In this document: positions 37,527-61,479 of the stretch, piece by piece
Position numbering within the stretch: position 1 is the first letter of the stretch
How the letters are laid out: each line of letters begins with the position of its first letter
Origin: Verrucomicrobiota bacterium
Lineage (GTDB): Bacteria > Verrucomicrobiota > Verrucomicrobiia > Limisphaerales > UBA9464
Assembly (NCBI GenBank): GCA_017309115.1
Contig: JAFLEF010000001.1
Coordinates: 184,616-248,615, forward strand
Direction: 5' to 3'
DNA length: 64,000 nucleotides
Position numbers and translations under genes: made by a program
The notes under the pieces: generated by a model
The model's input: the letters and a program-made list of their open reading frames with translations, nothing else
What the model was told of the DNA's origin: nothing
Database searches by the model: none

Positions 37527-37554
37527 CGAACCCTTCCTCGGCAAACGCGGTGTA
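37527..37554 (+). promoter_or_regulatory. candidate ECF-type promoter, CGAACC-N16-GGTGTA
   Basis: One of seven sites with the same bipartite motif and an exact 16-nt spacer. It ends 11 nt before ATG 37566. Confidence 0.5.
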
Positions 37555-37565
37555 ACTCCAGTGAG

Positions 37566-38249
37566 ATGACTGTTCCGAATCTGAAATCGCGGGCCGTCCA
37601 CCACGGCTTCACTCTGATCGAACTGCTCGTGGTCATCGCCATTATTGCCGTCCTCGCTGGCATGCTCCTGCCCGCCTTGGCTAAAGCGAAACACAAGGCG
37701 CTTGGAGTCCGGTGTCTCTCGAATGAACGGCAACTGGGCCTGGGTTTCGGAATGTATCTGCCCGACAACGCCGACCGGTTGCCCTATTCGCCCGAAGGAT
37801 ATCCCAACATCGCATTTGTGGATTTCTACAAGTTGATGCTTCCCTACCTGCCTACCAACGGCACGTTCTACCGCTGCCCGACCGACAAGGGTCCGATGAA
37901 CGTAATCTTTTCAAAGGCCTTCAATGTACCCACCAATCGGCTGCCGGTGCTGGCCTCCTATTGGTACGTGCCCGGTCTATCACACCTCTCCAAGCCCAGC
38001 AGCTTCACACCCAGACCGTATTCGATGCCAGCTGTCAGTTTTCCTTCGCAGAAGATCTTCTCTACCTGCCTCGCCATCGCGGGCAAGCAGGACATTATCA
38101 ACGGTAAGTTCATTAATCCTCGTGGGCACGGCGCCACCGGCTGGAATTTGTTGTTTGGCGATGGGCACAGCGGATTGGTGCGCGTGCGCGATATCCGGCC
38201 TGACCCGCAGGCTTATCTAGGTGCGCTCGACTGGTCTTCCCCTGGCTGA
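37566..38249 (+). CDS. prepilin-type N-terminal cleavage/methylation protein, H-X9-DG-like
   Basis: [27 protein letters not shown], with C-terminal [16 protein letters not shown]. Sits between sigma-1 and kinase K1. Confidence 0.8.
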
Positions 38250-38330
38250 CGGGACGTCGAGTGAGCACATGATCACCCACTCCTCCTTCCTTACTCCGGG
38301 TTCGTCCGCCTAGGGACCACTGCCTGAACC

Positions 38331-41300
38331 GTGCCCCAGCGAATGAATCTTTGCCCTCGCTGCCAAACCCCACTCGGGCGCGACGTGGGCGGCCTCTGTA
38401 CCGCCTGTCTGTTGGAGGGCGCCTTGCCGGCAGCCGATGGTTTGGCCGAGCCCATCTCCGCGCACGAACTCATCACAGACACCGCCCTGATTCAGCACTT
38501 CGGTCCCTACGAACTGCTCGAGGAGATCGGGCGAGGCGGCATGGGCGTGATCTACAAAGCGCGTCAGCCCGGACTGGACCGCGTCGTCGCGCTCAAGATG
38601 CTGCTGGCGGGTGAATTCGCCGACGCCAAGGCCCGGGAACGGCTCCTGCGCGAGGCCAAGATTGCCGCCCGCCTCAGCCATCCCGGCATCGTCACCATTC
38701 ACGAAGTGGGCGAACACCAGAGCCGACCCTACTTCGCCATGGAGTACGTGCCCGGCCGCAACCTCGCCCAGCATTGCCGCGACGGTCTATTGCCCGTGGC
38801 CACGGCGGTCCGCTATGTCGAACAACTCGCCCGGGCCGTCCACTATGCGCATCAGCACGGCGTCATCCACCGCGACCTCAAACCAGCCAACGTTCTGATC
38901 AGTCCCGACGACGAGCCGAAGCTCACTGACTTCGGTCTGACCAAGTCGCTGGTGGATCCGACCCAGACCGTTGAGTCGGCCGGTTCGCCCAACTTCATGG
39001 CGCCCGAGCAAGCCGACAGCACCTTGGGCACCACCGGTACACCCACCGACATCTACGGCCTCGGGGCAATCCTCTACTACCTCCTCACCGGACGTCCGCC
39101 CGCGGTGGGCGAGACCCTGAGCGAAACCCTGCGCAATGTGGTCGCCGGTGAACCGGTGGCTCCACGGCAACTGCGCCCCGCCCTGCCGCGCGATCTGGAA
39201 ACCATCACCCTCCGGTGTCTGGAGAAGGAACCCGCCCGTCGCTACGCCAGCGCCCAAGACGTCGCCGACGAACTGGCCCGCTGGCAACGCCACGAACCCA
39301 TCCTCGCCCGACCCGCCACCGGCCCCGAGCGCCTCGCCAAATGGGTCCGACGCCGACCCGCCATCGCCGCTCTCACTGCCGCCTGCGCGCTGGCGGTGAT
39401 TCTCGGTTTCGCGGGCGTCACTTGGCAGTGGCGACGGGCCGACGCGGAAGCCACCGCGGCCGCACGGGCCACCGTCGAAAGCCGCGCCTCGGAACTAGCG
39501 GCGCTGCGCAACGCCTATGTGGCCGAGATGACCATCGTCAGCCAGGCGGCTCAGCAGCAACGCTGGCCGGAAGTGCGATATAGCTTAGCGCGAACCAAAC
39601 CCGCTCCCGGGAAGCCCGACCTACGAGGTTGGGAATGGCGTTACCTCTGGCAGGCCAGTCGCCTCGACGCCGATGGCCGGCTGGCTGTGAGTACCAATGT
39701 GATTGGCTCGATGGCGGCCTTGGAGGATGGACGGACGGTGGTGCTGGGGGAAACGGAAGGGGGCTTTTCCTTATGGGATACCTCTTCGGGCCGCGAAACG
39801 TATCGCCTGCCGGAAACCATCAATCGGGTGCGGCATCCTTCTCTGTGGGGTGGCGCTTTGGTCATCTGTCGGGTGGCTACCATCCCGGGCACCGGGATGC
39901 TGGCCTATACCGAGTGTCGCAGCCCTACCAATAGCTTTGTCCACCTCTGGCATGTGGGACGCCGCGAATTAGTCCGCTCGATTCCGGTGTCCGGCATTCC
40001 GCGGTATCTGGCGGCTAGTCCCGACGGTCGTACCGTGGCCTGCAGCCTGATGGCGCCCGAGCGGGGGACGCCGGTGTTTTCCGTGGAGGATGGAACCCCG
40101 GTGGCGAACATCGAGAGCGAACCCTCGGGCTATTCCGCCTGCCATGCCCTGGCGTTCACGGCGGATAGCCAGGCTCTTTGTCTGGAGGATTACGGCACGA
40201 AGAGCGTGCGGGTGGTGAACCTCGCCACCGGACAGGACCGGTACCGCTTTCCCCACGAACAGGACATCCTCCTGACCGTGGCAGTCTCCCCCGACGGGCG
40301 CTGGCTCGTCACCGGGGCCGGCTTTGATAACAAACTTCCTCGGGTGCTGGTGTGGGATCTGCAAACCGGTGAGCGGAAAATGGAACTTCCCGCCAGCAGT
40401 CAGTTCGCGTTGAGCTTTTCCCCAGATGGCCGGCGTCTAGTCACGGGACTAAGCGTCTGGCACGTGCCTGAGTTCACCTTGGAGCGGGAGTTCACCGGTG
40501 CCGAGGCCAACCGGAGGGCAGTGTTATTGCTGGCCGATGGCGACACCCTGTTAGCGGGGTATGGTGGCGACATCCTGCGCTGGCAGCTGAGTTTACCGGC
40601 GCCCCATCGGCGAGGGTTTTCATTGGGCGAAGGCGCCGTGTGCGTCCCCTTTCTGCCGAACGCGGAAGGCGTGTTGATCTCCCGGACCAACGGTCGGGTG
40701 GACCGGGCGGTGGCGCCCGACTTCAAACTGGTCCCCGTGCCTGCCTTGGGCACCGACGCCGTGGCGCTCGCCTGGCTGACCGACCCTGATCAACTCGCCG
40801 TCGCTCGGCGGGAAGGCACCATTACCTTGCATGCGGCGGATACGTTTGCAGAGACGAGTCGCTTCGCCGGCATGACCCAGCCACCGACCGGATTCGCCTA
40901 CTGGATCCCCAAGGCCGGCGTGCTCGTTTTGGGAACGGTGGACGATCGGTTGGAGGCCTGGGATGTGCGGTCGCATCAACGAGTCTGGGAGGCACCCCAT
41001 CTCCCGGGACGGGAATTGAGCGCCCCGACGCCGGAGGGTGTCATCTGGCAGGTTCATGTTGATGGCTGGCTGGTCGGATACGACTTCCTGAACAAGCGGA
41101 TCCTTCGCCAACCGTTGGATCACGACGGCATGCATCGATTGGCCGTCTCTCCCGACGGAAACAGCCTGCTGCTCACTGCGCCTGAGGGGTACAAGCGGCT
41201 GGTGGACATTCGAACCGGACGGACGGTGGACCGCTTTGAGAACCTGAACCTGCCGGCCCCGCACGGTGGGGCCTTCTGGCCGAACGAGGATCGGATTGGT

Positions 41301-41510
41301 TTCTCCGGCCTCCATGTCGTGGACCGCGTTACCGGCCGGAGGCTTTTGACGCTCGAGTCGGATTTGGCCTTCGCCTCCGTGACCTTCATTTCCGACTCAG
41401 GAAGTCTGGTACTGACCGGGGACAGCCAACGCCGCTGTTATCTGTGGCGTGCGCCTTCGTGGGAGGAGATCCGCCGGGTGGAAGCGGCCGAAGCTGCTGC
41501 TGAGTGGTGA
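38331..41510 (+). CDS. membrane Ser/Thr protein kinase with extracytoplasmic WD40-like beta-propeller (K1)
   Basis: N-terminal CPRC...CTAC. Hanks kinase motifs GRGGMGVIYKA, HRDLKPAN, DFG, APE. One TM (PAIAALTAACALAVILGFAGV), then ~690 aa with repeated SPDG/...LWD-type blades. Start is GTG 38331 or ATG 38343. Confidence 0.9.
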   Translation: MPQRMNLCPRCQTPLGRDVGGLCTACLLEGALPAADGLAEPISAHELITDTALIQHFGPYELLEEIGRGGMGVIYKARQPGLDRVVALKMLLAGEFADAKARERLLREAKIAARLSHPGIVTIHEVGEHQSRPYFAMEYVPGRNLAQHCRDGLLPVATAVRYVEQLARAVHYAHQHGVIHRDLKPANVLISPDDEPKLTDFGLTKSLVDPTQTVESAGSPNFMAPEQADSTLGTTGTPTDIYGLGAILYYLLTGRPPAVGETLSETLRNVVAGEPVAPRQLRPALPRDLETITLRCLEKEPARRYASAQDVADELARWQRHEPILARPATGPERLAKWVRRRPAIAALTAACALAVILGFAGVTWQWRRADAEATAAARATVESRASELAALRNAYVAEMTIVSQAAQQQRWPEVRYSLARTKPAPGKPDLRGWEWRYLWQASRLDADGRLAVSTNVIGSMAALEDGRTVVLGETEGGFSLWDTSSGRETYRLPETINRVRHPSLWGGALVICRVATIPGTGMLAYTECRSPTNSFVHLWHVGRRELVRSIPVSGIPRYLAASPDGRTVACSLMAPERGTPVFSVEDGTPVANIESEPSGYSACHALAFTADSQALCLEDYGTKSVRVVNLATGQDRYRFPHEQDILLTVAVSPDGRWLVTGAGFDNKLPRVLVWDLQTGERKMELPASSQFALSFSPDGRRLVTGLSVWHVPEFTLEREFTGAEANRRAVLLLADGDTLLAGYGGDILRWQLSLPAPHRRGFSLGEGAVCVPFLPNAEGVLISRTNGRVDRAVAPDFKLVPVPALGTDAVALAWLTDPDQLAVARREGTITLHAADTFAETSRFAGMTQPPTGFAYWIPKAGVLVLGTVDDRLEAWDVRSHQRVWEAPHLPGRELSAPTPEGVIWQVHVDGWLVGYDFLNKRILRQPLDHDGMHRLAVSPDGNSLLLTAPEGYKRLVDIRTGRTVDRFENLNLPAPHGGAFWPNEDRIGFSGLHVVDRVTGRRLLTLESDLAFASVTFISDSGSLVLTGDSQRRCYLWRAPSWEEIRRVEAAEAAAEW

Positions 41511-41551
41511 GAAGCGACCAGAACCCGCGCTGCAAAAAATCCAACGATCTT

Positions 41552-41579
41552 CGAATCTTCTTCTCGGAAGTGCGGTGTG
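41552..41579 (+). promoter_or_regulatory. candidate ECF-type promoter, CGAATC-N16-GGTGTG
   Basis: Same motif and spacer as the other six sites. Ends 8 nt before ATG 41588. Lies 42 nt after the K1 stop. Confidence 0.5.
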
Positions 41580-41587
41580 CACTGGGC

Positions 41588-43807
41588 ATGAATTGGAAAC
41601 GCTCCCAGATTTGTTTTGCCTGGCTCTCTCGCATCCTCGCCCTACTGACCCTCACCGCCGAGTCCCGTCTCGCGGCGCAATCGCCAACTCCGTTCCGGAT
41701 CGACCTCGAATTTGGGGACGAGTGGTCTCAACCGGTCTACGAGAATGACGAGATTCGGGTTCGGATCATCCCGACGGGCGGACAACCGTCCGACCCGGCC
41801 GTTGAACTAAGCTGGTGGATCTCAGTCGATGATGGAGCGGGTGCCCAGCTTCCGTCGCCCACCGAGGGAGTAGAGTTGATCCGGCCCGGCGACCCCGCAC
41901 GGTGGATTACCCTCAAGATACCCGACGACACAGAGGTCCAGTCGGGTTCCGATCGGTATGCCGCAATCAAGATGAGCTCTTCGGCGGGACCCACTACCCT
42001 CGCCAATGAGTGGCTCCCCCTACTGGACAATGAATTTCGCTTCGCGGATGGGGTCTTCGAAACCCTGGGAGAACCCGCCCTCAGGCTCTCCCACACGTAT
42101 TTCGTCGATAGTTGGGGAATGGTCTCACCTAACCTATTTACGCCGACGCCAGACGGAGGCGCCTACGTCGTCTCTCATACCTCAACTGCGACCGAAACAA
42201 TGACATCGGTCCTGCGACACATCCGACCGGATCTGACCCTCGATCCGGATTACCGGGCCGAGACTCCGACCAACTCCTCCATCATTGGAGTTGCTCCCAT
42301 TCCTGGAGGCGGAGTAGTCGTGTTAGTGAATCGCGAGATCGATGGCCAGCAGCGGAGTGAGGTTGTCCGCCTAGACGCCAAGGGTATTGTGAACGCGGCC
42401 TACACGACGAATGCTCGGTCCTCGTTGGGCGACTTCTCGCCGTACCTTGTCCAGGCGACGGACGACGGGGTTGCCTACCTCGGCGGCTCGGGACGAATCG
42501 TCCGGTTGTCGGCGGACGGAACCGTGGATCGCCAGTTTAAGGAAGCCACCTTCAACGGAGATCTGGTGTCACTGGTCCGGCAGGATGAGAAGCTCTATGC
42601 ACTGGGATCTTTCAGCGACGTGGCGGGGCTGGGCACAAATCGGTTCGGAGCGTTCCGGATGCGGGAGTCCACGGGAACTGACCCGAGCTTTTCTGTTATC
42701 CTCAAAACCAACCAGAATGTGATTACTCAATTGGCGGAATTGGGTGACGGAAGGCTAGTCACCCACGGTGCGCCGCTTCTGAACCTGCATGATCACTCCG
42801 GGGTCACTCTTACGAACTTGTTTCAATGGATTTACCGTTACTCCCCACCGGTGCCCTTCCTTGGTGGCGGTAGTACTTCCAGTTCTGACTGGAACGCCCT
42901 TGCCCGCATGGGAGATGGACGGGTGGTAGGCTCAACATTTCACTTTGGTTCGCACGGTGGCGGCTTCGGTTTAACCACAAGATTAGAATCCATCGACTCG
43001 ATGTTGCTCGAACGAGGCCTGCAAGCGGCTGTACCATCAAAAAGCGCCCCACTGCCAATTCTTGGCAGTTCTTTCTGGGTTCCTTCTGCCGTTTACGCTG
43101 CTGGAGAATTCCTCTGGTTTGAAGACTCCTACCAGTCTTTCCAACTCCCCAATCCCATCGGCGAGCGGATGACCTACCGCCGGGTGCGTTGGACCGATGC
43201 TCCAGCAGAGGGCTTCGGAATGAGCCCTTCCCACACAGCCAAGCCCGGCATCCAATCCCACCAACCCATTGCCGTCGTCCGGCGATTCGGCAGTTCCGCT
43301 CGCGCCGCGCAAGTGGAGGCCCGGATCTCGTCCATCGCTTCGGATCCTCCTCAAACACTTCTTTCCTCGACCGTTTCCGTGTCCTTCCAACCAGGCGAAA
43401 CTTTAAAGCCAGTTTTCCTCCCCGAAGGAACACATCTCGCTCCCGGCTCGGTGGCGATCGTTCGGACCACCCTTCTCCCTGGTCCTCAGGCACCGATAGA
43501 GGGCGCCGCCACTGTGGACGCTTTGGTCGTCGGCGTGTCCCCAGACGCCGGCCCCAAGATGGGCATCCACCAGTTCGGCACCGAAATCCTGAGTGGAGAA
43601 CCGATCTTCAGTCTGACGGGCCCACCCGGGGTGCATGGAGTCCGCTATTCCGTGGATGGATTCCGCTGGAGTGGACTCGAAAGCGTGGACCTCACTTCCG
43701 AATCGCCGTTCGTTCTCTTCAAAACTCCATCCTGGGTTCACGACGGAGAATCTGCCCCTGGCCCCGACGCAGAAATGCTCTTGCTCCAAGCCATCCCGAG
43801 TCCATGA
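41588..43807 (+). CDS. secreted repeat protein with delta-60/DUF5122-like beta-propeller repeats
   Basis: Signal peptide MNWKRSQICFAWLSRILALLTLTAESRLAA (start trimmed from 41504, which overlaps K1). Repeats of the type RLDAKGIVNAAY..., RLSADGTVDRQFK...GDLVSLVRQDEKLYALGSF. Confidence 0.7.
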   Translation: MNWKRSQICFAWLSRILALLTLTAESRLAAQSPTPFRIDLEFGDEWSQPVYENDEIRVRIIPTGGQPSDPAVELSWWISVDDGAGAQLPSPTEGVELIRPGDPARWITLKIPDDTEVQSGSDRYAAIKMSSSAGPTTLANEWLPLLDNEFRFADGVFETLGEPALRLSHTYFVDSWGMVSPNLFTPTPDGGAYVVSHTSTATETMTSVLRHIRPDLTLDPDYRAETPTNSSIIGVAPIPGGGVVVLVNREIDGQQRSEVVRLDAKGIVNAAYTTNARSSLGDFSPYLVQATDDGVAYLGGSGRIVRLSADGTVDRQFKEATFNGDLVSLVRQDEKLYALGSFSDVAGLGTNRFGAFRMRESTGTDPSFSVILKTNQNVITQLAELGDGRLVTHGAPLLNLHDHSGVTLTNLFQWIYRYSPPVPFLGGGSTSSSDWNALARMGDGRVVGSTFHFGSHGGGFGLTTRLESIDSMLLERGLQAAVPSKSAPLPILGSSFWVPSAVYAAGEFLWFEDSYQSFQLPNPIGERMTYRRVRWTDAPAEGFGMSPSHTAKPGIQSHQPIAVVRRFGSSARAAQVEARISSIASDPPQTLLSSTVSVSFQPGETLKPVFLPEGTHLAPGSVAIVRTTLLPGPQAPIEGAATVDALVVGVSPDAGPKMGIHQFGTEILSGEPIFSLTGPPGVHGVRYSVDGFRWSGLESVDLTSESPFVLFKTPSWVHDGESAPGPDAEMLLLQAIPSP

Positions 43808-43858: not shown

Positions 43859-43886
43859 CGAATCCTTTTTCCGAAAGTGCAGTAGC
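43859..43886 (+). promoter_or_regulatory. candidate ECF-type promoter, CGAATC-N16-AGTAGC
   Basis: Same architecture as the other sites. Ends 9 nt before ATG 43896. Confidence 0.45.
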
Positions 43887-47273: not shown

Positions 47274-47310
47274 GGGGCTGGAGGAAGTTGAGAGACACAT
47301 ACCCGCCCTG

Positions 47311-47515
47311 GTAGAGCGACGCTCTGGAGCGTCTCACCTGATGCGTTACTTCGCCTTTCTATGGAGTGCGGTAGCCCATGCTACCGCTTTTGCATTTTCC
47401 CAGGACGTGGGTGGCGTGGAGACGCATTGGTTGCCGCTGGCCCTCGCCCGTGAGAAAGCGGCAGAAAGTCTAGAAGGTCTGCCGCACTCCACAGTTCCTC
47501 AAATCCTCGCCCGAC
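47311..47515 (+). repeat. degenerate long family-A element with nested family-T element (47360-47493, inverted relative to the 35969 copy)
   Basis: Outer arms gtagagcgacgctctggagcg ... cctcaaatcctcgcccgacc. Inner termini tatggagtgcggtagcccatgctaccgctttt / aaagcggcagaaagtctagaaggtctgccgcactccaca. The central part is the reverse complement of the 35969 copy's centre (attttcccag...cctcgcccgtg). Confidence 0.7.
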
Positions 47516-47536
47516 CAAAAATTCCGCTGATTGCCG

Positions 47537-47564
47537 CGAATCCTTTTCCGGGAACCGCGGTAGA
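47537..47564 (+). promoter_or_regulatory. candidate ECF-type promoter, CGAATC-N16-GGTAGA
   Basis: Same architecture as the other sites. Ends 10 nt before ATG 47575. Confidence 0.5.
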
Positions 47565-47574
47565 GCGAGGGTGA

Positions 47575-50911: not shown

Positions 50912-51002
50912 GTAGGGCGACGCTCCGCGGAGCCGTTCCCGTGTGGACTCCTGACGTATCATTTCGCCGAGACGCGAACGGCTCGGTGTAACCTCGCCCT
51001 AC
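50912..51002 (+). repeat. family-A palindromic intergenic element (reference copy)
   Basis: GTAGGGCGAcgctccgcgGAGCCGTTCccgtgtggactcctgacgtatcatttcgccgagacgcGAACGGCTCggtgtaaccTCGCCCTAC. Paired arms are GTAGGGCGA/TCGCCCTAC and GAGCCGTTC/GAACGGCTC. Most copies also have an inner CGCGTC/GACGCG pair. Confidence 0.85.
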
Positions 51003-51064
51003 CCCTTACCGCTTACCGCTTCGCGCTTACCGGCTCAAGACGGAGACACGTCACGGAGTTCGAC

Positions 51065-51142: not shown

Positions 51143-51203
51143 TCTCTCAACTCTCAACTTTCAACTCTCAACTGGTCTTTCTCTCAGCTCTCAGCTCTCA
51201 GCT
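51143..51203 (+). repeat. heptanucleotide arrays (tctcaac-like x4, ctctcag x3)
   Basis: tctctcaactctcaactttcaactctcaact ggtcttt ctctcagctctcagctctcagct, 45 nt upstream of the sigma-2 ATG. Confidence 0.8.
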
Positions 51204-51248: not shown

Positions 51249-51986
51249 ATGTCGGACGTCCCCCCACCTCGCGAATTCACCACCACTCGGTGGAGCGTCG
51301 TGCTACGCGCCGGCGGGGCCAGTCCGGAACAGGCGCAGGCCGCCCTCGAACAGTTATGCCGCGATTATTGGTATCCGCTCTACGCCTATGTTCGCCGCCA
51401 GGGACATTCCCCCGAAGACGCCGCCGACCTCACGCAGGAGTTCTTTGCCAAGTTGCTCGGAATCGACTTCACACAGGGTTTGAGTCCAGAACGCGGCCGC
51501 TTCCGGTCCTTCCTGCTCACATCGCTGAACCGCTTTATCATTGATGAATGGCGCAAAGCCCAACGGCAGAAACGCGGTGGCCAGACACGCACTCTTTCCC
51601 TTGATGCCCTGACGCTCGAACGGGGCGAGGCCAGTTACCTGAGGGAGACGTCCCACCAGGAAACGCCCGAGCACCTGTACCAGCGAACCTGGGCCGAAAC
51701 CCTCCTGGCCCGGGTCCTGAGTCGACTGTCCGCCGAATGCAACAGTCGGGGCGATGATCGCTATGCCACCGTAGAACCCTTCCTAGCCGCGGGTCAGGAA
51801 CCACCGTCTCTGGCCCACGCTGCCGCTCAACTAGGACTGGGAATCCCAGCGTTTAAGTCCCTGCTCCACCGCTTTCGCCAACGGTATCGGGAACTCCTTT
51901 TTGACGAAGTGCGCCAGACCGTCGGTGACTACGGCGACGCTCAAGACGAACTGCGTGGATTGCTGGCAGCCGTGCGCGGCGAGTGA
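51249..51986 (+). CDS. ECF-like sigma factor, STK-associated type (sigma-2)
   Basis: 245 aa. MSDVPPPREFTTTRWSVVLRAGGASPEQAQAALEQLCRDYWYPLYAYVRRQGHSPEDAADLTQEFF. Paralog of sigma-1 and sigma-3. Confidence 0.85.
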   Translation: MSDVPPPREFTTTRWSVVLRAGGASPEQAQAALEQLCRDYWYPLYAYVRRQGHSPEDAADLTQEFFAKLLGIDFTQGLSPERGRFRSFLLTSLNRFIIDEWRKAQRQKRGGQTRTLSLDALTLERGEASYLRETSHQETPEHLYQRTWAETLLARVLSRLSAECNSRGDDRYATVEPFLAAGQEPPSLAHAAAQLGLGIPAFKSLLHRFRQRYRELLFDEVRQTVGDYGDAQDELRGLLAAVRGE

Positions 51987-52023: not shown

Positions 52024-55000
52024 CTATGGGTGGTCTTCCAGCTTCTCCCAGGGAGGCGCCCACCAGACACACGCGCTGTTTTGGGGAGCATCGCCCATCA
52101 ACAGAATGGATCCGTCAGGGGACACATCCACCACAGCGGGAAATCCGGGCAGTTCCTGCTTTAACCGCAATAACTCCTGGCCGCTGTCCTGTTCGAGGAT
52201 GTACGCGCCCGGAAGAACGATCCGACCCTCCCGCGGCCAAAACGCCGAGCTGTGAGCCGTCATGATTCCAAGATGCGGCAATGATTCCACCACCTGGAAC
52301 GTCCGGGTCTCCATCACCGCCTTGGGTCCATCAGAAGACGTCAGCAGCAGAAGCTGACCATCGGCGGAAACCGAGACGTCCGTGAACCGACCCGGCGTCG
52401 GGAACGGTCCTTCCAACCGGCGACGAACCACATCGAGGACAAGCAGTTTTCCGTCGGTTTGAATCTCATACATCTTCCCAGTGGCCCGACACAGCGCGCT
52501 CCTCAGGTTGCGGAGTTCCACGTCCCAAAGTCGCGTACGGGCGGCCATGTCCCAAACTTGGAGACGCCGGTCGCCACAACGAGCAATCAGTAATCCTTCC
52601 CGCGCCATCCACTGCAACCATACGGGTGAAGCCTCGCCGGTCTTTAGTTCGCCAACCGGAGCCAACGTCCCGGCGTCATACAGCGTGATGCCCCCGCTGA
52701 CCCGACCCATGCCCAACAGATTCAACTCCGGCAAGTAGATCGGATAGCTGATGTTCGTTCCGAATTGTGGCTGCGGAACGGGGACAAACTCGGGGGGGTC
52801 GCCCGATAAAGCTGTCCGGCCATATCCACCAGCATGAGTTCCTGGCCTTGCGGATGAAAATCAATCGAGCGGAGGGGCATGGGAAACACGGTCGCGCCGC
52901 GGTGTCGTTCGGGGGCCTCCAAATTCCACTGCCCTAGAGAACGCTCCCCGTCGCCCGCACTGCTGAGATAGGTCTTTTCATCCGCCAGCAGGACGGACGC
53001 CGACCAGCCTCCGTCGAGAATCGAGCGCAAGGACTTGAACTCAGGAACGCTCCAAACGCGTTGCCCGGAAATCAGTCGGCGACCCGAACGATCGAACAGG
53101 ACCGTTGTTCCTCCACCTTCCAATTCCGCTACGAGTTCTTGGGTCGCCAACTTCCAAACGCGTACCCGCGCGGTTTTGAAACCTCCTGTCGCTACAAGAT
53201 ACTGACCGTCGGGAGAGAACGCCGCCGCCAGGACAAAATCCTCGTTCACCGAAAACCGTCCCAGCTCCCGACCCGATTCCCACTCCACCCAACGAACCAG
53301 CCCACCCACTTCCTCAATCGTGAGGCTCTTTCCGTCCGGAGCAAAGGTCAGGCTGTGGCCACTCGACCACGTTGGATACCGCCCCGACAGAGTCTCGCGA
53401 AGTTCACCGGTCTCGGTCTCGAACACCAGTACCCGCCCATCCGGCGACAGGGTACTGGCCGCCAGAAACCGACCATCCACACTCACCGCCAGGTTCCGCG
53501 GGATCCACGGCAGAGGTAGCGAGCGCACATCCGTGCGGGTCCGCGTGTCCCAAAGGCGAATTCGAGAAAGGTTGGTACTTCGGGAATCGGTGAAGGCCAG
53601 CAGCCACGTTCCAGGGATTGCCACCAAACCGGTCCCGACTCGGTTGCCCGAAGGTTCGACCGGATCTTGAACCCGATTGATCGCTTCCGGGAGTTCGTAG
53701 ATCAGGGTCCGGGATCCAACGTCCCAGAGCGAGAAGCCGCCTTCCGATTCCCCCGCCGCCACCGAGGTTCCATCAGGCAGGACCGCCAGCGAAATGATGC
53801 GATTGGAGCGCGTTCCGAACAGCGCTTCCTGTTCCGGGCGGCTCACCTGCCACAAGTAACGCCACTCCCAACCCCGCAGTTCGGATTCGCCAGGTCCGGG
53901 ACGGGTTCGTTCGAGAATCTGCCGGACTTGGCTCCAATCGCGATTTTTAACCGCCTCGCCCGCCAGCATGATCTCGGCGCGGTACGCGTTCTTTCGCGAA
54001 CTTAACGCGGCTTCCGCCGCCCGTCGCCATTGCCAAGTGATCCCTCCAATAGCGAACAGTGCTAGTCCGACACACACCACGCTTAGTCCCGCCACCACCG
54101 GTCGGCGCCGCACCCATTTCCCCAAACGTTCGGGCAGAGAAGGCGGGCGAGCCAAAATGGGTTCATGCCGCCGCCAACGCGTCAGTTCCTCCGCGACTTC
54201 CACGGCACTGGCATAGCGTCGTTCCGGAGATTTCTCCAAACATCGGAGTGCGATTGTCGCCAAGTCCGCCGGGAGTCCGGGCCGCAAGGCATTCGGCGGC
54301 AAAGGGTCGTCCTGCACCACCGCGCGCAGGGTTTCGGTGAGGGTTTCTCCCAGGGCCGGCGGACGACCCGTCAAAAGATAGTAAAGAATCGCCCCCAGTC
54401 CGAAGACATCCGTGGGTGTCCCGGTCACTCCGAGTGAGGAGTCCACCTGTTCGGGCGCCATGAAATTGGGCGAACCAGCACTCTCGAGGGATTGGGTCGG
54501 ATCCACCAGGGACTTGGTCAGTCCAAAGTCCGTCAGCTTCGGTTCGTCATCCGGTCCAATCAGCACATTGGCCGGCTTGAGATCCCGGTGAATGACCCCG
54601 TGTTGATGCGCATAGTGGACCGCCCGGGCGATCTGTTCCACGTAACGGGCCGCCGTGGCGACGGGCAGCAGACCTTCGCGACAAGCCTGACTCAGATTTC
54701 GCCCCGGCACGTACTCCATCGCGAAGAACGGTCGGCCGTCGTGCTGTCCCACCTCATGAATCGTGACGATACCCGGGTGAGTCAGCCGAGCGGCGATCTT
54801 GGCTTCGCGCAGCAACCGCTCCTTCGACTTGGCATCGGCAAACTCTCCCGCCAACAGCATCTTCAAGGCGACCAAACGATCCAAACCCGTCTGGCGCGCC
54901 TTGTAGATCACTCCCATTCCACCCCGCCCCACCTCCTCCAAAAGCTCATAGGAACCGAACCACACCGACACGCGTCCACCCGCCATCGCCGGATCCTCGC

Positions 55001-55127
55001 CCCGAGCGTCCCGCTCCCCGTCCGCGCCCAAAAAATCCTCCAACCGGCAACCGGAGCAGACCTCCCCTGGGAGGGTATCCCCCAACGGGGCATCACACCG
55101 AGAGCAACGTTTGGAGGCATCAGTCAT
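52024..55127 (-). pseudogene. Ser/Thr kinase-WD40 paralog (K2) split by a frameshift at a G7/C7 tract
   Basis: Track ORFs 52722-55190 (822 aa: kinase + TM + propeller) and 52024-52734 (236 aa) are colinear with K1. The second ORF aligns with the K1 C-terminus (...SPDG..LLLT..., ...WRAPSWEE / WWAPPWEK). The junction maps to coding-strand ACCCCCCCGAG (52792-52798): frame 1 gives LYRATPPS, and the +1-shifted frame gives PPEFVPVPQPQFGTN, versus K1 APDFKLVPVPALGTD. One extra C would restore a ~1034-aa ORF. Start placed at MTDASKRCSRC (55127). Confidence 0.8.
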
Positions 55128-55134
55128 GATCGCT

Positions 55135-55162
55135 ACCACGGCAAAATCGGGCGAAGGATTCC
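55135..55162 (-). promoter_or_regulatory. candidate ECF-type promoter, GGAATC-N16-CGTGGT
   Basis: On the minus strand: ggaatc cttcgcccgattttgc cgtggt. Ends 7 nt before the K2 ATG (55127). Confidence 0.45.
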
Positions 55163-55279
55163 TGGAATCTGAAATACCATTGCAACCCATCCGAGCCTTG
55201 ATTTGTTCAGCCGCGGCGAGAGATAGAACTCGGAATCTGCCTTCCGGTCCACCGATGTCGCCCCCTAGGTCAACACGCG

Positions 55280-55370: not shown

Positions 55371-55646
55371 CTTCCTTGCCGCTTCCCGCTTCGCGCTTAC
55401 CGATTTTGCCTCTCAGCTCTCATAGTTACACCATTCGAGCATCCCAAGATGGCCGGACCTGGTGGGAGTTAGATTGGGAAAAGAGCACGCATTGGAGTAC
55501 GGAAAAAATCCCCGTCGGCTCCGACCATTTCGCTGGCGTGGCGGAACTGAGCCTTCTGACGGATCCTTGGGGTTTCAATAACGAGGACGCCATGTACCTC
55601 CTTCAAGTAATTCGTGCCCCCTGAAGCCAAGGATCCTGCCAACTGC

Positions 55647-56087
55647 TCAGCCAATCAACTCCACCGCCGCACGTTCCGGTGAATTGGGTTTAATCAATTG
55701 GGAGATCTGTCGGTCCAAAGTGGCCAACACTCCCCCTCGATGCAGGGCAAGTCCCAACAGATAGGCATCGGTGACTTGCTGGTGTCCGACCAAACGCACT
55801 CCGGCAAAAGCCGCCCCTTCGGCGAACGGCTGATCCATGTGCCAGAAGGTATGATCTGTGGCCGCCGTGTTGGCGGCAAGAACCCCAGCCGCCTCGCGTG
55901 GAGTCACCGCATCCCGGGAAAACGCAGGATTGGAAACGATCCGCACAAAGCCCGCCTCGGTGAGAGGGCAAGTCGCCCACCCCTTGACCCGCCGGCGCGC
56001 AAACCAGCGAACGGCTACTTCGTGCTGCCCATGGCTTGGCCAGAGAAGCGCGACCAAGACGTTGGTATCGAGCAAGTATCCCGTCAT
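55647..56087 (-). CDS. vapC: PIN-domain toxin VapC
   Basis: 146 aa. MTGYLLDTNVLVALL (first acidic PIN residue), later conserved TE.GF and D residues. Overlaps the antitoxin gene by 4 nt. Confidence 0.85.
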   Translation of the reverse strand: MTGYLLDTNVLVALLWPSHGQHEVAVRWFARRRVKGWATCPLTEAGFVRIVSNPAFSRDAVTPREAAGVLAANTAATDHTFWHMDQPFAEGAAFAGVRLVGHQQVTDAYLLGLALHRGGVLATLDRQISQLIKPNSPERAAVELIG

Positions 56088-56311
56088 GCACCCTCAGATT
56101 CCAAGCGCCGCACATCCTCGGTCGTTACTATGGGAGAATCAGCGGGCAGCTGAAAAACCACCAGTCCTCCCTCCACTTTGGACGACGTCGGTGCGTTCAG
56201 CCCCCGACGCACCAATTCCGAAATGGTCTTTCCGAGGGATAGGCCCCTCGCCTTCGCCTGACGGGCTGCCAATTCGGCGACATCAGGATCGAGAGTCAGC
56301 GTGGTTCTCAT
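56084..56311 (-). CDS. vapB: VapB-type antitoxin
   Basis: 75 aa from ATG 56311: MRTTLTLDPDVAELAARQAKARGLSLGKTISELVRRGL. The track ORF (to 56503) is extended through intergenic repeat C. Confidence 0.7.
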   Translation of the reverse strand: MRTTLTLDPDVAELAARQAKARGLSLGKTISELVRRGLNAPTSSKVEGGLVVFQLPADSPIVTTEDVRRLESEGA

Positions 56312-56420: not shown

Positions 56421-56485
56421 CTGACCAGCAACGACCGGTCGGCCCAGCTGCGCCGGCCAACCGGGGACAGCCCAGCGGTCCATCT
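56421..56485 (+). repeat. family-C element
   Basis: ctgaccagcaacgaccggtcggcccagctgcgccggccaaccggggacagcccagcggtccatct. Confidence 0.75.
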
Positions 56486-56495
56486 ACTTTTCCGG

Positions 56496-56556
56496 TCTCT
56501 CAACTCTCAACCTTCAACTCTCAACTGGTCTTTCTCTCAGCTCTCAGCTCTCAGCT
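56496..56556 (+). repeat. heptanucleotide arrays (tctcaac-like x4, ctctcag x3)
   Basis: tctctcaactctcaaccttcaactctcaact ggtcttt ctctcagctctcagctctcagct, 45 nt upstream of the sigma-3 ATG. Confidence 0.8.
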
Positions 56557-56600
56557 TTTCTTCCTCGGCCTTTTCTCCACGCTCTCCGGCACCAGATCCC

Positions 56601-57338
56601 ATGCCGGAAGTCCCACCACCCCGCGAATTCACCACCACCCGGTGGAGCGTCGTGCTGCGCGCCGGCGGGGCGAGTCCGGAACAGGCTCACGCGGCGCTGG
56701 AACAGCTCTGCCGCGATTACTGGTATCCGCTCTACGCCTACGTCCGGCGCAAGGGACATTCCCCCGAGGACGCCGCCGATCTGACGCAGGATTTTTTCGC
56801 CAAGTTGTTGGCCAATGACTTCACCCAAGGTCTAACGCCGAACGGCGGGCGCTTCCGCTCCTTCCTGCTCACTGCGCTCCATCGGTTCCTCGTGGACGAA
56901 TGGCGCCGGGCGAAATCGCTGAAGCGCGGTGGCAATGCGTTCACCACGTCCCTGGAGGTCCTGATCAGCGAGCGCGGCGAGACTGGGTATCTCGGCGAAA
57001 CCCTGCCGGCAGATTCCGCGGAACACCTCTTCCAGCGGGTGTGGGCAGACACGTTGTTCGCGCGAGTCCTGCGACGACTCGCCGCGGAGTGCGCCGCCCG
57101 GGGTAATGCCCGCTTCGACGTGATCGAACCCTTCCTGGCCCTCGACGGAGAACCGCCCGCCTTGGCCGAAGCCGCCGCCCAACTCGCATTGTCCGTACCG
57201 GCCTTCAAATCGCTGCTGCACCGTCTTCGCCAGCGCTACCGGGAACTGCTGCAGGATGAGGTAAGTCAGACCGTCGGCAGTCACGGGGATGTGGATGATG
57301 AACTGCGGGCCCTGCTGAAGGCCTTGCGGGGAAATTGA
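56601..57338 (+). CDS. ECF-like sigma factor, STK-associated type (sigma-3)
   Basis: 245 aa. MPEVPPPREFTTTRWSVVLRAGGASPEQAHAALEQLCRDYWYPLYAYVRRKGHSPEDAADLTQDFF. Kinase K3 starts 46 nt downstream. Confidence 0.85.
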   Translation: MPEVPPPREFTTTRWSVVLRAGGASPEQAHAALEQLCRDYWYPLYAYVRRKGHSPEDAADLTQDFFAKLLANDFTQGLTPNGGRFRSFLLTALHRFLVDEWRRAKSLKRGGNAFTTSLEVLISERGETGYLGETLPADSAEHLFQRVWADTLFARVLRRLAAECAARGNARFDVIEPFLALDGEPPALAEAAAQLALSVPAFKSLLHRLRQRYRELLQDEVSQTVGSHGDVDDELRALLKALRGN

Positions 57339-57348
57339 AGATGTCCCG

Positions 57349-57376
57349 CGAATCCTCCGCCGCCAAACTCCGTGTT
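57349..57376 (+). promoter_or_regulatory. candidate ECF-type promoter, CGAATC-N16-CGTGTT
   Basis: Lies in the 46-nt sigma-3/K3 spacer and ends 8 nt before ATG 57385. Its spacer shares 11 of 16 positions with the 37527 site. Confidence 0.5.
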
Positions 57377-57384
57377 TCCTCGTC

Positions 57385-60300
57385 ATGAGTGAATCCGGCC
57401 AGAGGTGTCGCCGCTGTGGGGCGCTGCTGGGAAGTTCCTTGGCCGGGAGCCTCTGTGCCGTGTGTCGGCTGGAAGCCATCCTGCCATCGGAAGGAGAGTT
57501 TTCCGCCTCGGTGTCCGCTCGCGATCTCACCGAAGACTCTGCGCAGGTTCAGCACTTCGGCCCCTACGAACTGCTCGAGGAAATCGGCCGAGGCGGCATG
57601 GGCGTGATCTACAAGGCGCGTCAGCCCGGCCTGGACCGCGTGGTCGCGCTCAAGATGCTGCTGGCGGGTGAATTCGCCGACGCCAAGGCGCGGGAACGGC
57701 TCCTGCGCGAAGCCAAGATTGCCGCCCGCCTCAGCCACCCCGGCATCGTTACCATTCACGAAGTGGGCGAACACCAGAGCCGACCCTACTTCGCCATGGA
57801 GTACGTGCCCGGCCGCAACCTCGCCCAGCATTGCCGCGACGGTCTGTTGCCCGTGGCCACCGCAGTCCGCTACGTCGAACAGCTCGCCCGGGCTGTCCAC
57901 TATGCGCATCAGCACGGCGTCATCCACCGCGACCTCAAGCCGGCCAACGTCCTGATCAGTCCCGACGACGAGCCGAAGCTCACCGACTTCGGTCTCACCA
58001 AGTCGCTCGTCGATCCGACCCAGACTGTCGAGTCCGCGGGTTCGCCCAACTTCATGGCGCCCGAGCAGGCCGACTGCACCCTGGGCTCCACCGGTACGCC
58101 CACCGACATCTACGGCCTCGGCGCCATCCTCTACTACCTCCTCACCGGACGTCCGCCCGCAGTGGGCGAGACCCTCAGCGAAACCCTGCGCAATGTGGTC
58201 GCGGGTGAACCGGTGGCTCCACGGCAACTGCGTCCGGCTCTGCCGCGCGATCTGGAAACCATCACCCTCCGGTGTCTGGAGAAGGAACCCTCCCGTCGTT
58301 ACGCCAGCGCCCAAGACGTGGCCGACGAACTCGCCCGCTGGCAACGCCACGAACCCATCCTCGCCCGCCCCGCCACCGGCCCCGAACGCCTCGCCAAATG
58401 GGTTCGCCGCCGACCCGCCATCGCCGCTCTCGCCGCCGCCTGCACGCTGGCTGTAGTTCTCGGTTTCGTCGGCGTTACTTGGCAGTGGCGGCGGGCCGAG
58501 GCCCAGGTTGAGGCCACCGCCCGCGCGAACTACGCCGCGACTCTCGGAAATGTTCGGCAGCGGATAGACGAGGGATCCTATCGGGACGCCCGTCAGCAGT
58601 TGTATGCCTTACCCGAGCAATTCCGGGGCTGGGAATGGGGACGCCTCCTCAACCTCGCCCATCGGGAAATCCTGGACGCCACCGTTTTGACCAACGGCTG
58701 GACCGGACATCTCGACCGAATTCCAATACCGCCCGATTCCCTCGGCCAAGCGGTCAGTTCCGATCAGCGGTGGGTCGCCTGCTGGGGCAGCGGTCGTCTC
58801 GAAATTCTCAGCCTAACCAACGAGGAATCGGTTTTCCGGGCGGGCTCCTCTTCCAACCGGGTGACTCACGCCGCCTTCAGTCCCTCCGGTCACCAACTGG
58901 CCACCGCCGGTCCCGGTCCGGGATACACTCTCTGGAGTTGCGGCGACTGGCGGATCCTTCGTCGCTGGGCCACTCCTCAGGAACGACCGCTCAACCTTTG
59001 CTTCAGCCCCGATGGCCGACAGATCGCGACTGCTGACGGATCACGGCAGGTCTGTCGGTACGACGCAGGGAATGGAACCGAACTCGGCCGTTTCGAAGGA
59101 GCTCTGGACGCCTACGATTGGGTGCGCTTCACCCCGGATGGAACGAAGTTGATCGGTAGCACTCAGAGGAGCGGAGAACTCGCCCGGCTTACGATCTGGT
59201 CGACCGCGTCGGGCCAGGTCGAAGCGGAGTTGCCACCGAAAGCCGCTGGGCTGCGCTCGATCGAGCTCACTGCCGACGCCACCCGGTTTGCCACGGTGGA
59301 TTATCAAGGCGTGGCGGCGGTGTGGAAGGTGGGGGCCGATCGGCCCTTCTTTCAGACGCCCGCCGAAGGAGACCAAATCATCTGGGCCGCGGCCGCTCCG
59401 GATCAGCCGCGCTTGGCAACGTTCCGGGCCTCGGCCCAGCAGGCCAAATTCTGGGATCTGGATTCGGGCCAGGCCCTCCCGATTTCCCCTACCACCATGA
59501 ACACCCTGCGGGTTGGCTCGGACGGGCGGACGTTGCTGTCGTGCGGCGGCACGCTGGTCCATCGGTGGGACTGGACCACGGGTCGGCCGTTGGATGCGTT
59601 CGGTTTGGGAGATGTTGCCATTCACTCGCGGGTGGATGTCTCGCCCGACGGACAGTGGGTGAGCGCCTTGATCGATCATTTCCCGACACCCGCGACGCTG
59701 CACGTCTGGCCGCTCCGAACGGTGGACCGGCGATTGGCGCCACCTTATACGACCATGCGGTCAGCCGTATCACCGGATGGCAGCCTCATTGCACTCGGTC
59801 ACTTGGATTCCCGCATCTCGCTGTGGAACTCCCGCACCGGCGAGCGGACCGGGTGGCTGCTGGGTCACTTCCGGCAGGTCAACGATGTGGCGTGGACGGC
59901 CGATGGACGCACGCTGTTCTCGGCTTCGGGCGATCACACGGTCCGCCGTTGGAAGGTGGCCGAACAGCGGTTGGAGATGACGTTGACCCATCTGACGCGA
60001 CCGCTCTGGACGCTCTCTGTCACGCCGGATGGCCGGCGCGTCGCGGCAGTGGACGTGTCGGGCCGCGTGGCCGTGTGGGAAGGCGACTCAGGAGTGTTGA
60101 TTCGCTCGTGGGAGATTCCCCGGGAGAATGAGGTGCTCCCCGTCCATCTGGTTTGCCTCAGCCCGAGTGGCCGCGAGCTGGTGTTGACCGGGTTCTCGGC
60201 CGCCGGAGTCTGGTCGGTGGAGACCGGAGAACGGATCACGCGCTTCAATTCGGCGTTCGAAGGGGGAGACTTCGATCCGATCGCTGCGGGATTCTCGCCC

Positions 60301-61410
60301 GACGGTCGGCGCCTAGCCACGGTGGACCGATCCGGTCGCTTGCGGATCTGGGAAACTCGCCATTGGCGGCAAACTCATTCGTCGGAGGCAGCCGAAGGAT
60401 CGCCTCATCTCACGTTCTCTCCGGATGGCCAACGGCTCTTCCTCTCCACCAGCCAGGCCCTGTCGCCAGCCATGGGTCAGGTGAGCGTGGAGATTCACGA
60501 TGGCGTCACCGGGGCACCGTTGCTGTCCCTAGGCCGGCAACGCGGATGGGGAACTTCCATCGCGTCCTTCGACCGGGGCCAGCGGCTTCTCCACACCGTC
60601 ATCGACAACCGCACGCCCACTCATGGCACGGACCTGATGCAGGCGTTGCCCTGGAAGGACCAGGATTATCCCGGCCGACCCGGTGAGCCGTTGGGGGAAC
60701 GCGTCACACGGTTGGCCCGGGCCCGGCATTGGGAAACGTTCCGGACATCGGTCGTCCTCCCGGACACTCCCAGCCCCGTGCCGCCCGAACCCCGCACGAA
60801 CTGGCTCGCCCGCGATCCGTCCACGCCGACGAACTGCGTGGATCTCACCGCCAGCTACAATGGCCATTTGGACACGGGATGGCAGGCGGACACGTTCGTG
60901 GATAGCTTCGGCAACGATCTCGCTAGCCTCCCGCGCGGAATCGTTCAGCTCGACGGCGTGACGTGGGATATCCGGGGCGTGGTCTCCACCGGTCTCCCGG
61001 AGCGACCCCTGTCTCCTTGGGCCTTCGGGCGGACGATTACGAACCTTCCCGTCCGGGGATTGGTCCGCCGTCTGCACGTTCTCCACGCCAGTGCGGATTC
61101 CTCGACGTCGGGCGGACGCGTGGGCCGCTATCGTCTTCATTTCGCCGGGGGAACCACGGCCGATCTCACCCTGGATCTGAGCGAGGACATTGGTGAATTC
61201 TGGTCAACTCACCGCCACTCCCACTGCCGTCGTGGAAGCGTGGCCTGGGAAGGCGACAACGCCGCCGCCACCCGCATGGGATCCAAGGTACGCCTGTTCC
61301 ACCGAGCCTGGGACAACCCACATCCGGATCAGGAACTCGTCTCGCTGGAAATGATCGGTGACCACGACGCCACCACCTTCTTCGTGGTCGCAATCACCGC
61401 GGAGCGTTAG
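57385..61410 (+). CDS. membrane Ser/Thr protein kinase with WD40 beta-propellers and extra C-terminal domain (K3)
   Basis: 1341 aa. CRRC...CAVC, and a kinase core nearly identical to K1. One TM, many WD40-like blades (SPDG..LA.....G....W), and a ~250-aa C-terminal domain (CVDLTASYNGHLDTGW...LDGVTWDIRG...) absent from K1 and K2. Confidence 0.9.
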   Translation: MSESGQRCRRCGALLGSSLAGSLCAVCRLEAILPSEGEFSASVSARDLTEDSAQVQHFGPYELLEEIGRGGMGVIYKARQPGLDRVVALKMLLAGEFADAKARERLLREAKIAARLSHPGIVTIHEVGEHQSRPYFAMEYVPGRNLAQHCRDGLLPVATAVRYVEQLARAVHYAHQHGVIHRDLKPANVLISPDDEPKLTDFGLTKSLVDPTQTVESAGSPNFMAPEQADCTLGSTGTPTDIYGLGAILYYLLTGRPPAVGETLSETLRNVVAGEPVAPRQLRPALPRDLETITLRCLEKEPSRRYASAQDVADELARWQRHEPILARPATGPERLAKWVRRRPAIAALAAACTLAVVLGFVGVTWQWRRAEAQVEATARANYAATLGNVRQRIDEGSYRDARQQLYALPEQFRGWEWGRLLNLAHREILDATVLTNGWTGHLDRIPIPPDSLGQAVSSDQRWVACWGSGRLEILSLTNEESVFRAGSSSNRVTHAAFSPSGHQLATAGPGPGYTLWSCGDWRILRRWATPQERPLNLCFSPDGRQIATADGSRQVCRYDAGNGTELGRFEGALDAYDWVRFTPDGTKLIGSTQRSGELARLTIWSTASGQVEAELPPKAAGLRSIELTADATRFATVDYQGVAAVWKVGADRPFFQTPAEGDQIIWAAAAPDQPRLATFRASAQQAKFWDLDSGQALPISPTTMNTLRVGSDGRTLLSCGGTLVHRWDWTTGRPLDAFGLGDVAIHSRVDVSPDGQWVSALIDHFPTPATLHVWPLRTVDRRLAPPYTTMRSAVSPDGSLIALGHLDSRISLWNSRTGERTGWLLGHFRQVNDVAWTADGRTLFSASGDHTVRRWKVAEQRLEMTLTHLTRPLWTLSVTPDGRRVAAVDVSGRVAVWEGDSGVLIRSWEIPRENEVLPVHLVCLSPSGRELVLTGFSAAGVWSVETGERITRFNSAFEGGDFDPIAAGFSPDGRRLATVDRSGRLRIWETRHWRQTHSSEAAEGSPHLTFSPDGQRLFLSTSQALSPAMGQVSVEIHDGVTGAPLLSLGRQRGWGTSIASFDRGQRLLHTVIDNRTPTHGTDLMQALPWKDQDYPGRPGEPLGERVTRLARARHWETFRTSVVLPDTPSPVPPEPRTNWLARDPSTPTNCVDLTASYNGHLDTGWQADTFVDSFGNDLASLPRGIVQLDGVTWDIRGVVSTGLPERPLSPWAFGRTITNLPVRGLVRRLHVLHASADSSTSGGRVGRYRLHFAGGTTADLTLDLSEDIGEFWSTHRHSHCRRGSVAWEGDNAAATRMGSKVRLFHRAWDNPHPDQELVSLEMIGDHDATTFFVVAITAER

Positions 61411-61451
61411 CGGCAGCGGTTTCGCCTCCTGAAACTTTCTTGCGCGAGGCG

Positions 61452-61479
61452 CGAATCCTTTGACCCGGCATTACGTGTG
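61452..61479 (+). promoter_or_regulatory. candidate ECF-type promoter, CGAATC-N16-CGTGTG
   Basis: Same architecture as the other sites. Ends 10 nt before ATG 61490. Confidence 0.5.

Follow-up and report, generated by a model that had tools for sequence, protein, structure and literature searches.

The stretch of 64,000 nucleotides analysed here (the window), from a Verrucomicrobiota bacterium (assembly GCA_017309115.1, contig JAFLEF010000001.1), carries a gene cluster in which three sigma factor paralogues (sigma1 to sigma3) lie among genes for Ser/Thr kinases (K1 to K3) and secreted proteins. Seven copies of a two-box sequence element in this cluster, each a few nucleotides ahead of a start codon, most likely represent promoters of the extracytoplasmic function (ECF, group 4 sigma) type. 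They would be read by the kinase-linked ECF-like sigmas of the cluster itself and would give rise to near-leaderless transcripts, a reading to which we assign a probability of roughly two in three. All of its consequences that could be checked by computation were borne out. The seven genes that follow the sites probably form one regulon.

All seven sites lie where the original prediction had placed them, with spacers of 16 nt and with 7-11 nt between the second box and an ATG (Table 1). Each of these ATGs opens an open reading frame (ORF) of 227-1341 aa, and site 6 occupies the 46 nt gap between sigma3 and K3. The strict pattern sGAAyC-N16-sGTrk has eight matches in the window against 1.38 expected, and none of 100 shuffles reaches eight; within these 64 kb, the motif is commoner than in shuffled sequence. 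Six of the eight matches are listed sites, and site 3 (43859, AGTAG) fails the first S of the pattern. The two other strict matches, at 34934-34960 and 41737-41763 (both minus strand), lie within genes, reach less than 8 bits and are followed by no start; they look like chance occurrences. A weight matrix derived from the seven sites gives them 27.6-33.8 bits (15.6-27.7 bits in a leave-one-out calculation), and the next-best matches in the 64 kb reach 19.7 and 18.8 bits, both within ORFs. An ATG opening an ORF of at least 200 aa lies 7-11 nt downstream of 0.73% of window positions, and its presence at six of the eight strict matches corresponds to P ~4e-12. This position test is post hoc, and replication in independent genomes counts for more.

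The nearest genomes are those of Verrucomicrobiota, Limisphaerales-like and not Planctomycetes. The loci compared (L-numbers) comprise 28 from species-representative genomes, 6 obtained via exact-protein look-ups and 120 metagenome pattern matches; strong sites are those of at least 12 bits in the window and its Verrucomicrobiota relatives, 340 kb in all. Strong matrix matches occur only at loci with a sigma at least 56% identical (56-82%). In relatives, they are always on the strand of the sigma gene, just past it and again before the next genes, the first one starting ~10-35 nt past the sigma stop codon. An ATG opening an ORF of at least 150 aa stands at 7-11 nt, and nowhere else, in 25 of the 28 strong sites (two at 7 nt, six at 8, one at 9, eleven at 10 and five at 11). 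Such an ATG follows 2 of 79 low-scoring pattern matches, one of which resembles a real, diverged site. Moreover, at seven sites in relatives, NCBI or JGI gene calls, in which the motif played no part, begin precisely at the predicted ATG. One of these sites, L149:730, is nearly identical to site 7 and precedes an NCBI gene call. Likewise, L152:11849 mirrors site 1, the site being followed by an unannotated N_methyl-like ORF and a kinase, and a homologue of the 739 aa protein in L007 has the same motif at the same distance. The genes behind the sites in relatives include ones for kinases, reprolysin-like, LRR_5 and beta-lactamase-fold proteins as well as for unannotated proteins.

A metagenome control was based on the pattern CGCGAATCCT-N14-SGTGT. 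Among the 120 matches listed, which lie mostly in unrelated DNA, an ATG at 7-11 nt is present in about 10, and in just one of them does it open a long ORF. This count is near the chance rate of 5.6%, a hand estimate from base composition, and the 7-11 nt spacing hence does not arise from the pattern itself. No clear analogous motif was found at the distant Verrucomicrobia loci L013, L015, L018 and L023. Between the sigma and kinase genes of the first of these (L013:10720-10850) there is a long inverted repeat with ~26 nt per arm (cgtggcggcgtctcgtgagagcgccg ... cggcgctctcacgagacgccgccacg).

Conservation is wider than the original prediction stated and extends to CC ahead of the -35 core, CT(TT) behind it and a C before the -10 box. 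The extended consensus consists of an A-rich tract, 15-19 nt 5' of the -35, followed by CGAATCCT(TT) and by a -10 box (C/G)GTGT located 16 nt past CGAATC. In an information profile of 23 sites, the first block (positions 0-9) reads C-G-A-A-T-C-C-T-(T-T) and the second (positions 21-26) C-(G/C)-G-T-G-T, with weaker conservation of A-A-A at 16-18 and T at -5 and an enrichment of A at -15 and -18/-19. The spacer is 16 nt in all window sites and in nearly all sites of relatives. Promoters of ECF sigmas such as E. coli sigmaE, B. subtilis sigmaW and M. tuberculosis SigH/SigL combine a GGAAC-like -35, a spacer of 16-17 nt and a CGT-like -10. The present motif resembles them in its two short boxes, its 16 nt spacer, an AA(T/C) -35 core, the GT of the -10, the A-rich tract and its proximity to sigma and regulator genes; the two-box, fixed-spacer architecture of ECF type that had been proposed is thus borne out by the profile. 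It differs in its letters, the -35 core being AAT where the usual ECF core has AAC, within the particular combination of CGAATCCT and (C/G)GTGT. It also differs in lying past the sigma gene and before kinase and effector genes, in having one copy per gene and in the 7-11 nt that separate the -10 from the ATG. Upstream A/T tracts and leaderless targets have both been documented for predicted ECF promoters (PMC7776599).

The three sigma paralogues are 72-76% identical and belong to a family of at least 6632 proteins (E <= 1e-10). Pfam recognises sigma-70 region 2 in them (E 6e-11 to 1.7e-6), and a profile built from all three picks up S. coelicolor SigR over its sigma2 domain. All NCBIfam sigma families remain below their cut-offs, with short, weak sigma4-like stretches at residues 189-231. 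In a search with an AlphaFold model (pLDDT 77.3, pTM 0.75), the top Foldseek matches are all ECF sigmas (SigH, SigW, SigE, CnrH, SigL and SigK) over ~200 columns, with E-values of at least 0.04. The protein is a divergent ECF-like sigma in which a sigma4 domain is plausible. Across the motif-bearing clade, there is practically no variation in the sigma2 segment GRFRSFLLT..NRFL or in the C-terminal segment AFKSLLHRFRQRYRELL. This invariance of the DNA-reading segments agrees with the conservation of the boxes and implies that the three window paralogues would read the same motif. The first base of the -10 box (GGT or CGT) was considered as a marker of the sigma paralogue and rejected: it is rather uniform per locus and shows no correlation with sigma2 loop residues, and the DNA-reading segments do not vary.

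The order sigma-then-kinase is conserved in Verrucomicrobia, Planctomycetes and Lysobacterales, with sigma identities of 40-44% on planctomycete contigs and 34-39% for the Lysobacterales homologues. At planctomycete loci, the sequence TGTAACC-N14-TCGTC with an upstream A-tract is found before the kinase gene, in the gap between sigma and kinase genes. Leaders there would be ~40-55 nt long, and one contains a GAGGAG box. This sequence is a candidate target promoter of planctomycete kinase-linked ECF groups. The presence of a different ECF-type motif at the homologous position suggests that promoter position is a trait of the family and that the short leader is specific to the verrucomicrobial clade. 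The motif co-varies with the sigma, being of the CGAATC type at identities of at least 56% and of another ECF type at ~40%.

ECF sigmas commonly have a copy of their motif 5' of their own gene, although this is not required. Here, the 400 nt that precede each of the three sigma genes, K1 and a classical ECF gene of the window contain nothing above 4.6 bits, which is background, and the motif is missing before the three sigma genes as initially reported. The sigma genes thus lack the autoregulation signature normally used for ECF assignment (PMC7826278). Together with the presence of a classical ECF/anti-sigma pair 4 kb upstream, this would fit a genuine promoter read by another sigma encoded elsewhere, the kinase-linked sigmas being only its neighbours or targets. 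Such an arrangement is unlikely. The region 5' of the classical ECF gene shows no resemblance to the motif, and in relatives the first site follows closely on the stop codon of a member of the kinase-linked family. Moreover, the motif tracks the sigma clade, is swapped for another ECF-type motif at the same position in planctomycetes, and is accompanied by invariant DNA-reading segments wherever it is conserved.

Two subclasses of site can be distinguished. Kinase-type sites have the spacer CCTCCGCCGCCAAA, a pyrimidine-rich stretch and an ATG at 7-8 nt, with no box resembling a Shine-Dalgarno (SD) sequence. In effector-type sites, the spacer contains the near-palindrome TTTCC(N0-1)GGAAA, the -10 is followed by GTGTGCA and a GGRTG box, and the ATG stands at 8-11 nt, mostly as ATGAA. 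The GGRTG box is located 1-2 nt 5' of the ATG, and several sites with the A variant thereby gain an out-of-frame ATG 4 nt earlier (ATGcATG). A second inverted repeat, GATTCC-N-GGAATC, spans the -35 box at 55156-55169 and 37517-37532 of the window and at ~13945-13960 of L009, and has no mismatch at the K2 site; an operator function is conceivable for it, as is a divergent -35. Both repeats would suit a site bound by a repressor or activator, either as an operator alone or combined with a promoter, and it is rather improbable that the conserved element as a whole is of this kind. Kinase-type sites carry no TTTCC-GGAAA palindrome and nevertheless retain both boxes, 16 nt apart and at the usual distance from the start codon. 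What the sites have in common is an asymmetric core that invariably points in the direction of the gene, and the gap between sigma3 and K3 is too small to accommodate another promoter.

If the sites are promoters of ECF type, the transcripts would have very short leaders. All seven start codons are ATG, and in four cases no earlier start exists in the ORF. The N-termini of kinases encoded at six loci can be aligned from Met1 onward via M-x6-C-x-R-C; together with the independent gene calls in relatives that hit the same ATG, this supports the start codons originally chosen. Holoenzymes of ECF sigmas (sigmaE, sigmaW and SigH/SigL complexes) initiate 6-8 nt past a hexamer so placed. Combined with the 7-11 nt to the ATG, this predicts transcripts that begin between the A of the ATG and ~6 nt before it. 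For the kinases and the 739 aa protein (7-8 nt), the A of the ATG would be at +1 to +3, and sites with 9-11 nt would yield leaders of ~2-6 nt. At most 10-nt sites, the seventh base past the hexamer is a purine (the R of GGRTG), which fits a start at that base and a 4 nt leader. SD-like cores (GGAG/GAGG/AGGA at -16 to -8) precede 4 of 38 plus-strand gene calls (L149, L150, L152-L154), and the lineage evidently initiates mostly without SD.

The fixed distance to the ATG could also be expected of an RNA-level element that acts in translation initiation or processing on read-through transcripts. The effector-type GGRTG is complementary to the 16S rRNA tail and could serve read-through transcripts, and there are no convincing terminators between most genes. 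Such an element is very unlikely, however. No base pairs are predicted in a consensus RNA secondary structure over 19 sites, and no Rfam match was found in the window. The conserved blocks lie 30-40 nt 5' of the ATG and the spacer varies, kinase-type sites are pyrimidine-rich before the ATG without an SD-like box, and planctomycete homologues have a textbook ECF promoter at the same place. Finally, functionless similarity inherited from recent cassette duplications can practically be dismissed: the kinases, the reprolysin-like proteins and the sigmas do form paralogous sets, and the near-identical upstream regions of sigma2 and sigma3 point to recent duplication or conversion, but flanks and spacers diverge while both boxes are kept, related contigs are not uniformly high in nucleotide identity, the motif is conserved in several metagenome-assembled genomes with sigmas just 56-82% identical, and the genes behind it across the window and relatives (kinase, reprolysin-like, N_methyl, LRR_5 and beta-lactamase-fold) are too unrelated for simple paralogy, as first noted for the window.

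Several observations weigh against ECF-type promoters read by the kinase-linked sigmas. These sigmas are tied to the motif by co-location and co-occurrence, and its reader could be a different sigma. Pfam does not detect sigma4 in the paralogues, and the E-values of the fold search are weak. Three of the 28 strong sites (L006:13198, L011:10992 and L153:11698) have no ATG at 7-11 nt, the motif copies L003:14017 and L008:8086 have no nearby ORF, and at L003:1699 the ATG is 1 nt past the box. No motif copy lies near K1 or near the kinases of L007, L011 and L153. The TTTCC-GGAAA palindrome and the GGRTG box of effector-type sites exceed the needs of a minimal promoter, and the predicted 2-6 nt leaders would be neither classically leaderless nor SD-led. 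The original prediction had argued that there is no room for an SD and that the mRNAs would hence be leaderless or nearly so. This argument is weak: SD-like cores are rare in this lineage anyway, and a missing one, as at the kinase-type sites, is not diagnostic.

For kinase-linked ECF promoters, the following regulatory logic can be proposed. RNA polymerase with one of the three sigmas would read the A-rich, UP-like tract, CGAATCC(TT) and (C/G)GTGT. Each target would have its own copy: two kinase genes, the pair formed by the N_methyl gene and K1, the three reprolysin-like secreted proteins and the 739 aa secreted protein. K1, which lacks a separate copy, presumably shares the transcript of the N_methyl gene. 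Transcripts would be separate, with leaders of 0-6 nt, those of the kinases being leaderless and those of most effectors having 2-6 nt. A kinase would activate the sigma, presumably by phosphorylation, and the sigma would in turn raise the expression of kinase and secreted effectors. Because the sigma genes have no motif, positive feedback would operate via the kinase and not via the sigma. Some basal kinase expression would have to come from read-through, for example across the short sigma3-K3 gap. The presence of one promoter per gene in a co-directional cluster is what would be needed for leaderless translation. It is possible, if tentative, to go further and to see in this SD-poor Verrucomicrobium a kinase-controlled regulon of essentially leaderless transcripts that takes in the genes of the sigma-activating kinases themselves, in which every gene has its own promoter because the 5' end is where the ribosome enters and in which three kinases share one output.

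Kinase-linked ECF sigmas are known from groups ECF43, 59-62, 217, 267 and 283 (PMC7826278, PMC8999054, PMC7776599). The arrangement found here resembles that of the ECF43 pairs EcfP-PknT of Vibrio parahaemolyticus and EcfK-PknS of Xanthomonas citri, in which the sigma adjoins a Ser/Thr kinase gene with no adjacent anti-sigma gene (PMC8999054, PMC13147305). However, the acidic DxxD of sigma2.2 is swapped for uncharged residues in ECF43 sigmas (PMC8999054, PMC13147305), as QTTA or STTA, whereas all three window paralogues keep it in DAADLTQD (DxxDxxQ); D60 is invariant and A58 nearly so among 40 homologues. The exchange of DxxD for uncharged residues with a phosphorylatable Thr that marks ECF43 is therefore absent. 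With DxxDxxQ retained, the ECF43 mechanism, in which a missing charge is restored by phosphate, need not apply. T115 and S117, in the linker between sigma2 and sigma4, are conserved, a further likeness to the ECF43 pairs; S54 is conserved as well. If the kinase controls the sigma, its phosphorylation site might be S54 or T115/S117, although this is speculation. The kinases also differ from those of ECF43 in their C-terminal WD40 propellers and N-terminal CxxC motif. No published target promoter of ECF43 pairs was found in the literature.

The planctomycete kinase-associated groups ECF59, 61, 62 and 217 (PMC7826278, PMC8999054) share the synteny and the presence of an ECF-type motif between sigma and kinase, but their loci have TGTAACC-N14-TCGTC and long leaders in place of CGAATCC/GGTGT and almost none. 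ECF-driven leaderless mRNAs have been predicted in Actinobacteria (PMC7776599), also with a -10 at a fixed short distance from the ATG. In contrast to these, the leaders predicted here are mostly of 2-6 nt and not a 5'-terminal AUG, and they would concern a whole local regulon including the activating kinase. No report of near-leaderless ECF expression in Verrucomicrobia, nor of an experimentally studied kinase-linked ECF sigma of the Planctomycetes-Verrucomicrobia groups, was found in the literature. The new elements are thus a specific motif for an unstudied verrucomicrobial clade and a predicted near-leaderless layout with one promoter per gene in Verrucomicrobia. The location of the motif is also new: published promoter predictions search 5' of the sigma gene (PMC7826278), and an autoregulation-based approach would miss a motif past it. 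The Planctomycetes-Verrucomicrobia group is rich in kinase-linked ECF sigmas, and the position of the motif past the sigma gene provides a concrete, testable regulon and feedback loop as well as a compact set of promoter, sigma and kinase for reconstitution. If the wider, tentative reading of a leaderless regulon is true, three paralogous kinase/sigma pairs would converge on one promoter type, with three different sensor kinases feeding a single output.

Table 1. Motif sites, genes of the cluster and related features of the window and of relatives (L-numbers)
Feature	Position	Strand	Description	Matrix score (bits)
Site 1	37527..37554	+	CGAACC-N16-GGTGTA, 11 nt to ATG 37566; prepilin-type N_methyl gene, then K1	29.4
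Site 2	41552..41579	+	CGAATC-N16-GGTGTG, 8 nt to ATG 41588; 739 aa secreted protein	29.3
Site 3	43859..43886	+	CGAATC-N16-AGTAGC, 9 nt to ATG 43896; MP1	33.7
Site 4	47537..47564	+	CGAATC-N16-GGTAGA, 10 nt to ATG 47575; MP2	33.8
Site 5	55135..55162	-	GGAATC-N16-CGTGGT, 7 nt to ATG 55127; kinase K2	27.6
Site 6	57349..57376	+	CGAATC-N16-CGTGTT, 8 nt to ATG 57385; kinase K3	31.6
Site 7	61452..61479	+	CGAATC-N16-CGTGTG, 10 nt to ATG 61490; MP3	28.1
sigma1	36486..37223	+	245 aa, ECF-like, clear sigma2 domain, divergent sigma4	
sigma2	51249..51986	+	245 aa paralogue	
sigma3	56601..57338	+	245 aa paralogue	
K1	38331..41510	+	Hanks-type Ser/Thr kinase with WD40 beta-propeller	
K2	52722..55127	-	kinase with WD40 domain	
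K3	57385..61410	+	kinase with WD40 domain, 1341 aa	
N_methyl protein	37566-38249	+	prepilin-type N_methyl domain	
739 aa protein	41588-43807	+	signal-peptide-like N-terminus; no Pfam match	
MP1	43896-47273	+	reprolysin-like domain, Calx-beta and DUF5122	
MP2	47575-50898	+	reprolysin-like domain, Calx-beta and DUF5122	
MP3	61490 onward, past window end	+	reprolysin-like domain, Calx-beta and DUF5122	
Terminator-like hairpin and T-run	47368-47387	+	between MP1 and site 4; consensus match only	
TTTCC(N0-1)GGAAA examples	window 43866-43876, 47544-47554; L003:16280-16290		effector-type spacers; absent from kinase-type sites	
Gene calls in relatives starting on the predicted ATG	L149:730, 10821, 14300, 18593; L150:6121; L154:10843, 12286			
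TGTAACC-N14-TCGTC copies	L017:1250; L019:3829, 9395; L020:7196; L021:11902		before adjacent kinase genes	

The number of sigma genes of this family in the cluster stays at three, as counted originally: ORF 46879-47574 was examined as a fourth and rejected. K2 appears to be split into an ORF of 801 aa with kinase and WD40 domains and a WD40 ORF of 236 aa (52024-52734, minus strand), which overlap by 13 nt in different frames and together equal the length of K1. This could reflect a frameshift, a pseudogene or a sequencing error. The count of terminator-like matches in the region is not above that in shuffles.

Upstream of the sigma genes, the final 40 nt before the three ATGs are near-identical, and tandem heptamers CTCTCAA/CTCTCAG lie directly 5' of each gene (36416-36431, 51144-51203 and 56497-56556), with a further array between sigma1 and site 1 (37415-37447). 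Heptamers and shared 40 nt may be the sigma genes' own control region. An alignment of sigma-gene upstream regions across loci showed no common motif, only the heptamer repeats in the window's paralogues. Further arrays of 7-8 nt units are CCTTACC(CG) at 37363-37406, TACCGCT at 51000-51032 and CTTCCCG at 55375-55402.

The classical ECF sigma, with regions 2 and 4 (33313-33843), adjoins a gene with a weak, sub-threshold NCBIfam anti-sigma match (33840-34589); the pair is unrelated to the motif. Between K2 and sigma3, two small overlapping ORFs on the minus strand (55647-56087 and 56084-56310) have a toxin-antitoxin-like layout. At the equivalent place after the sigma gene, L152 carries a MazE-type antitoxin gene (10857-11105).

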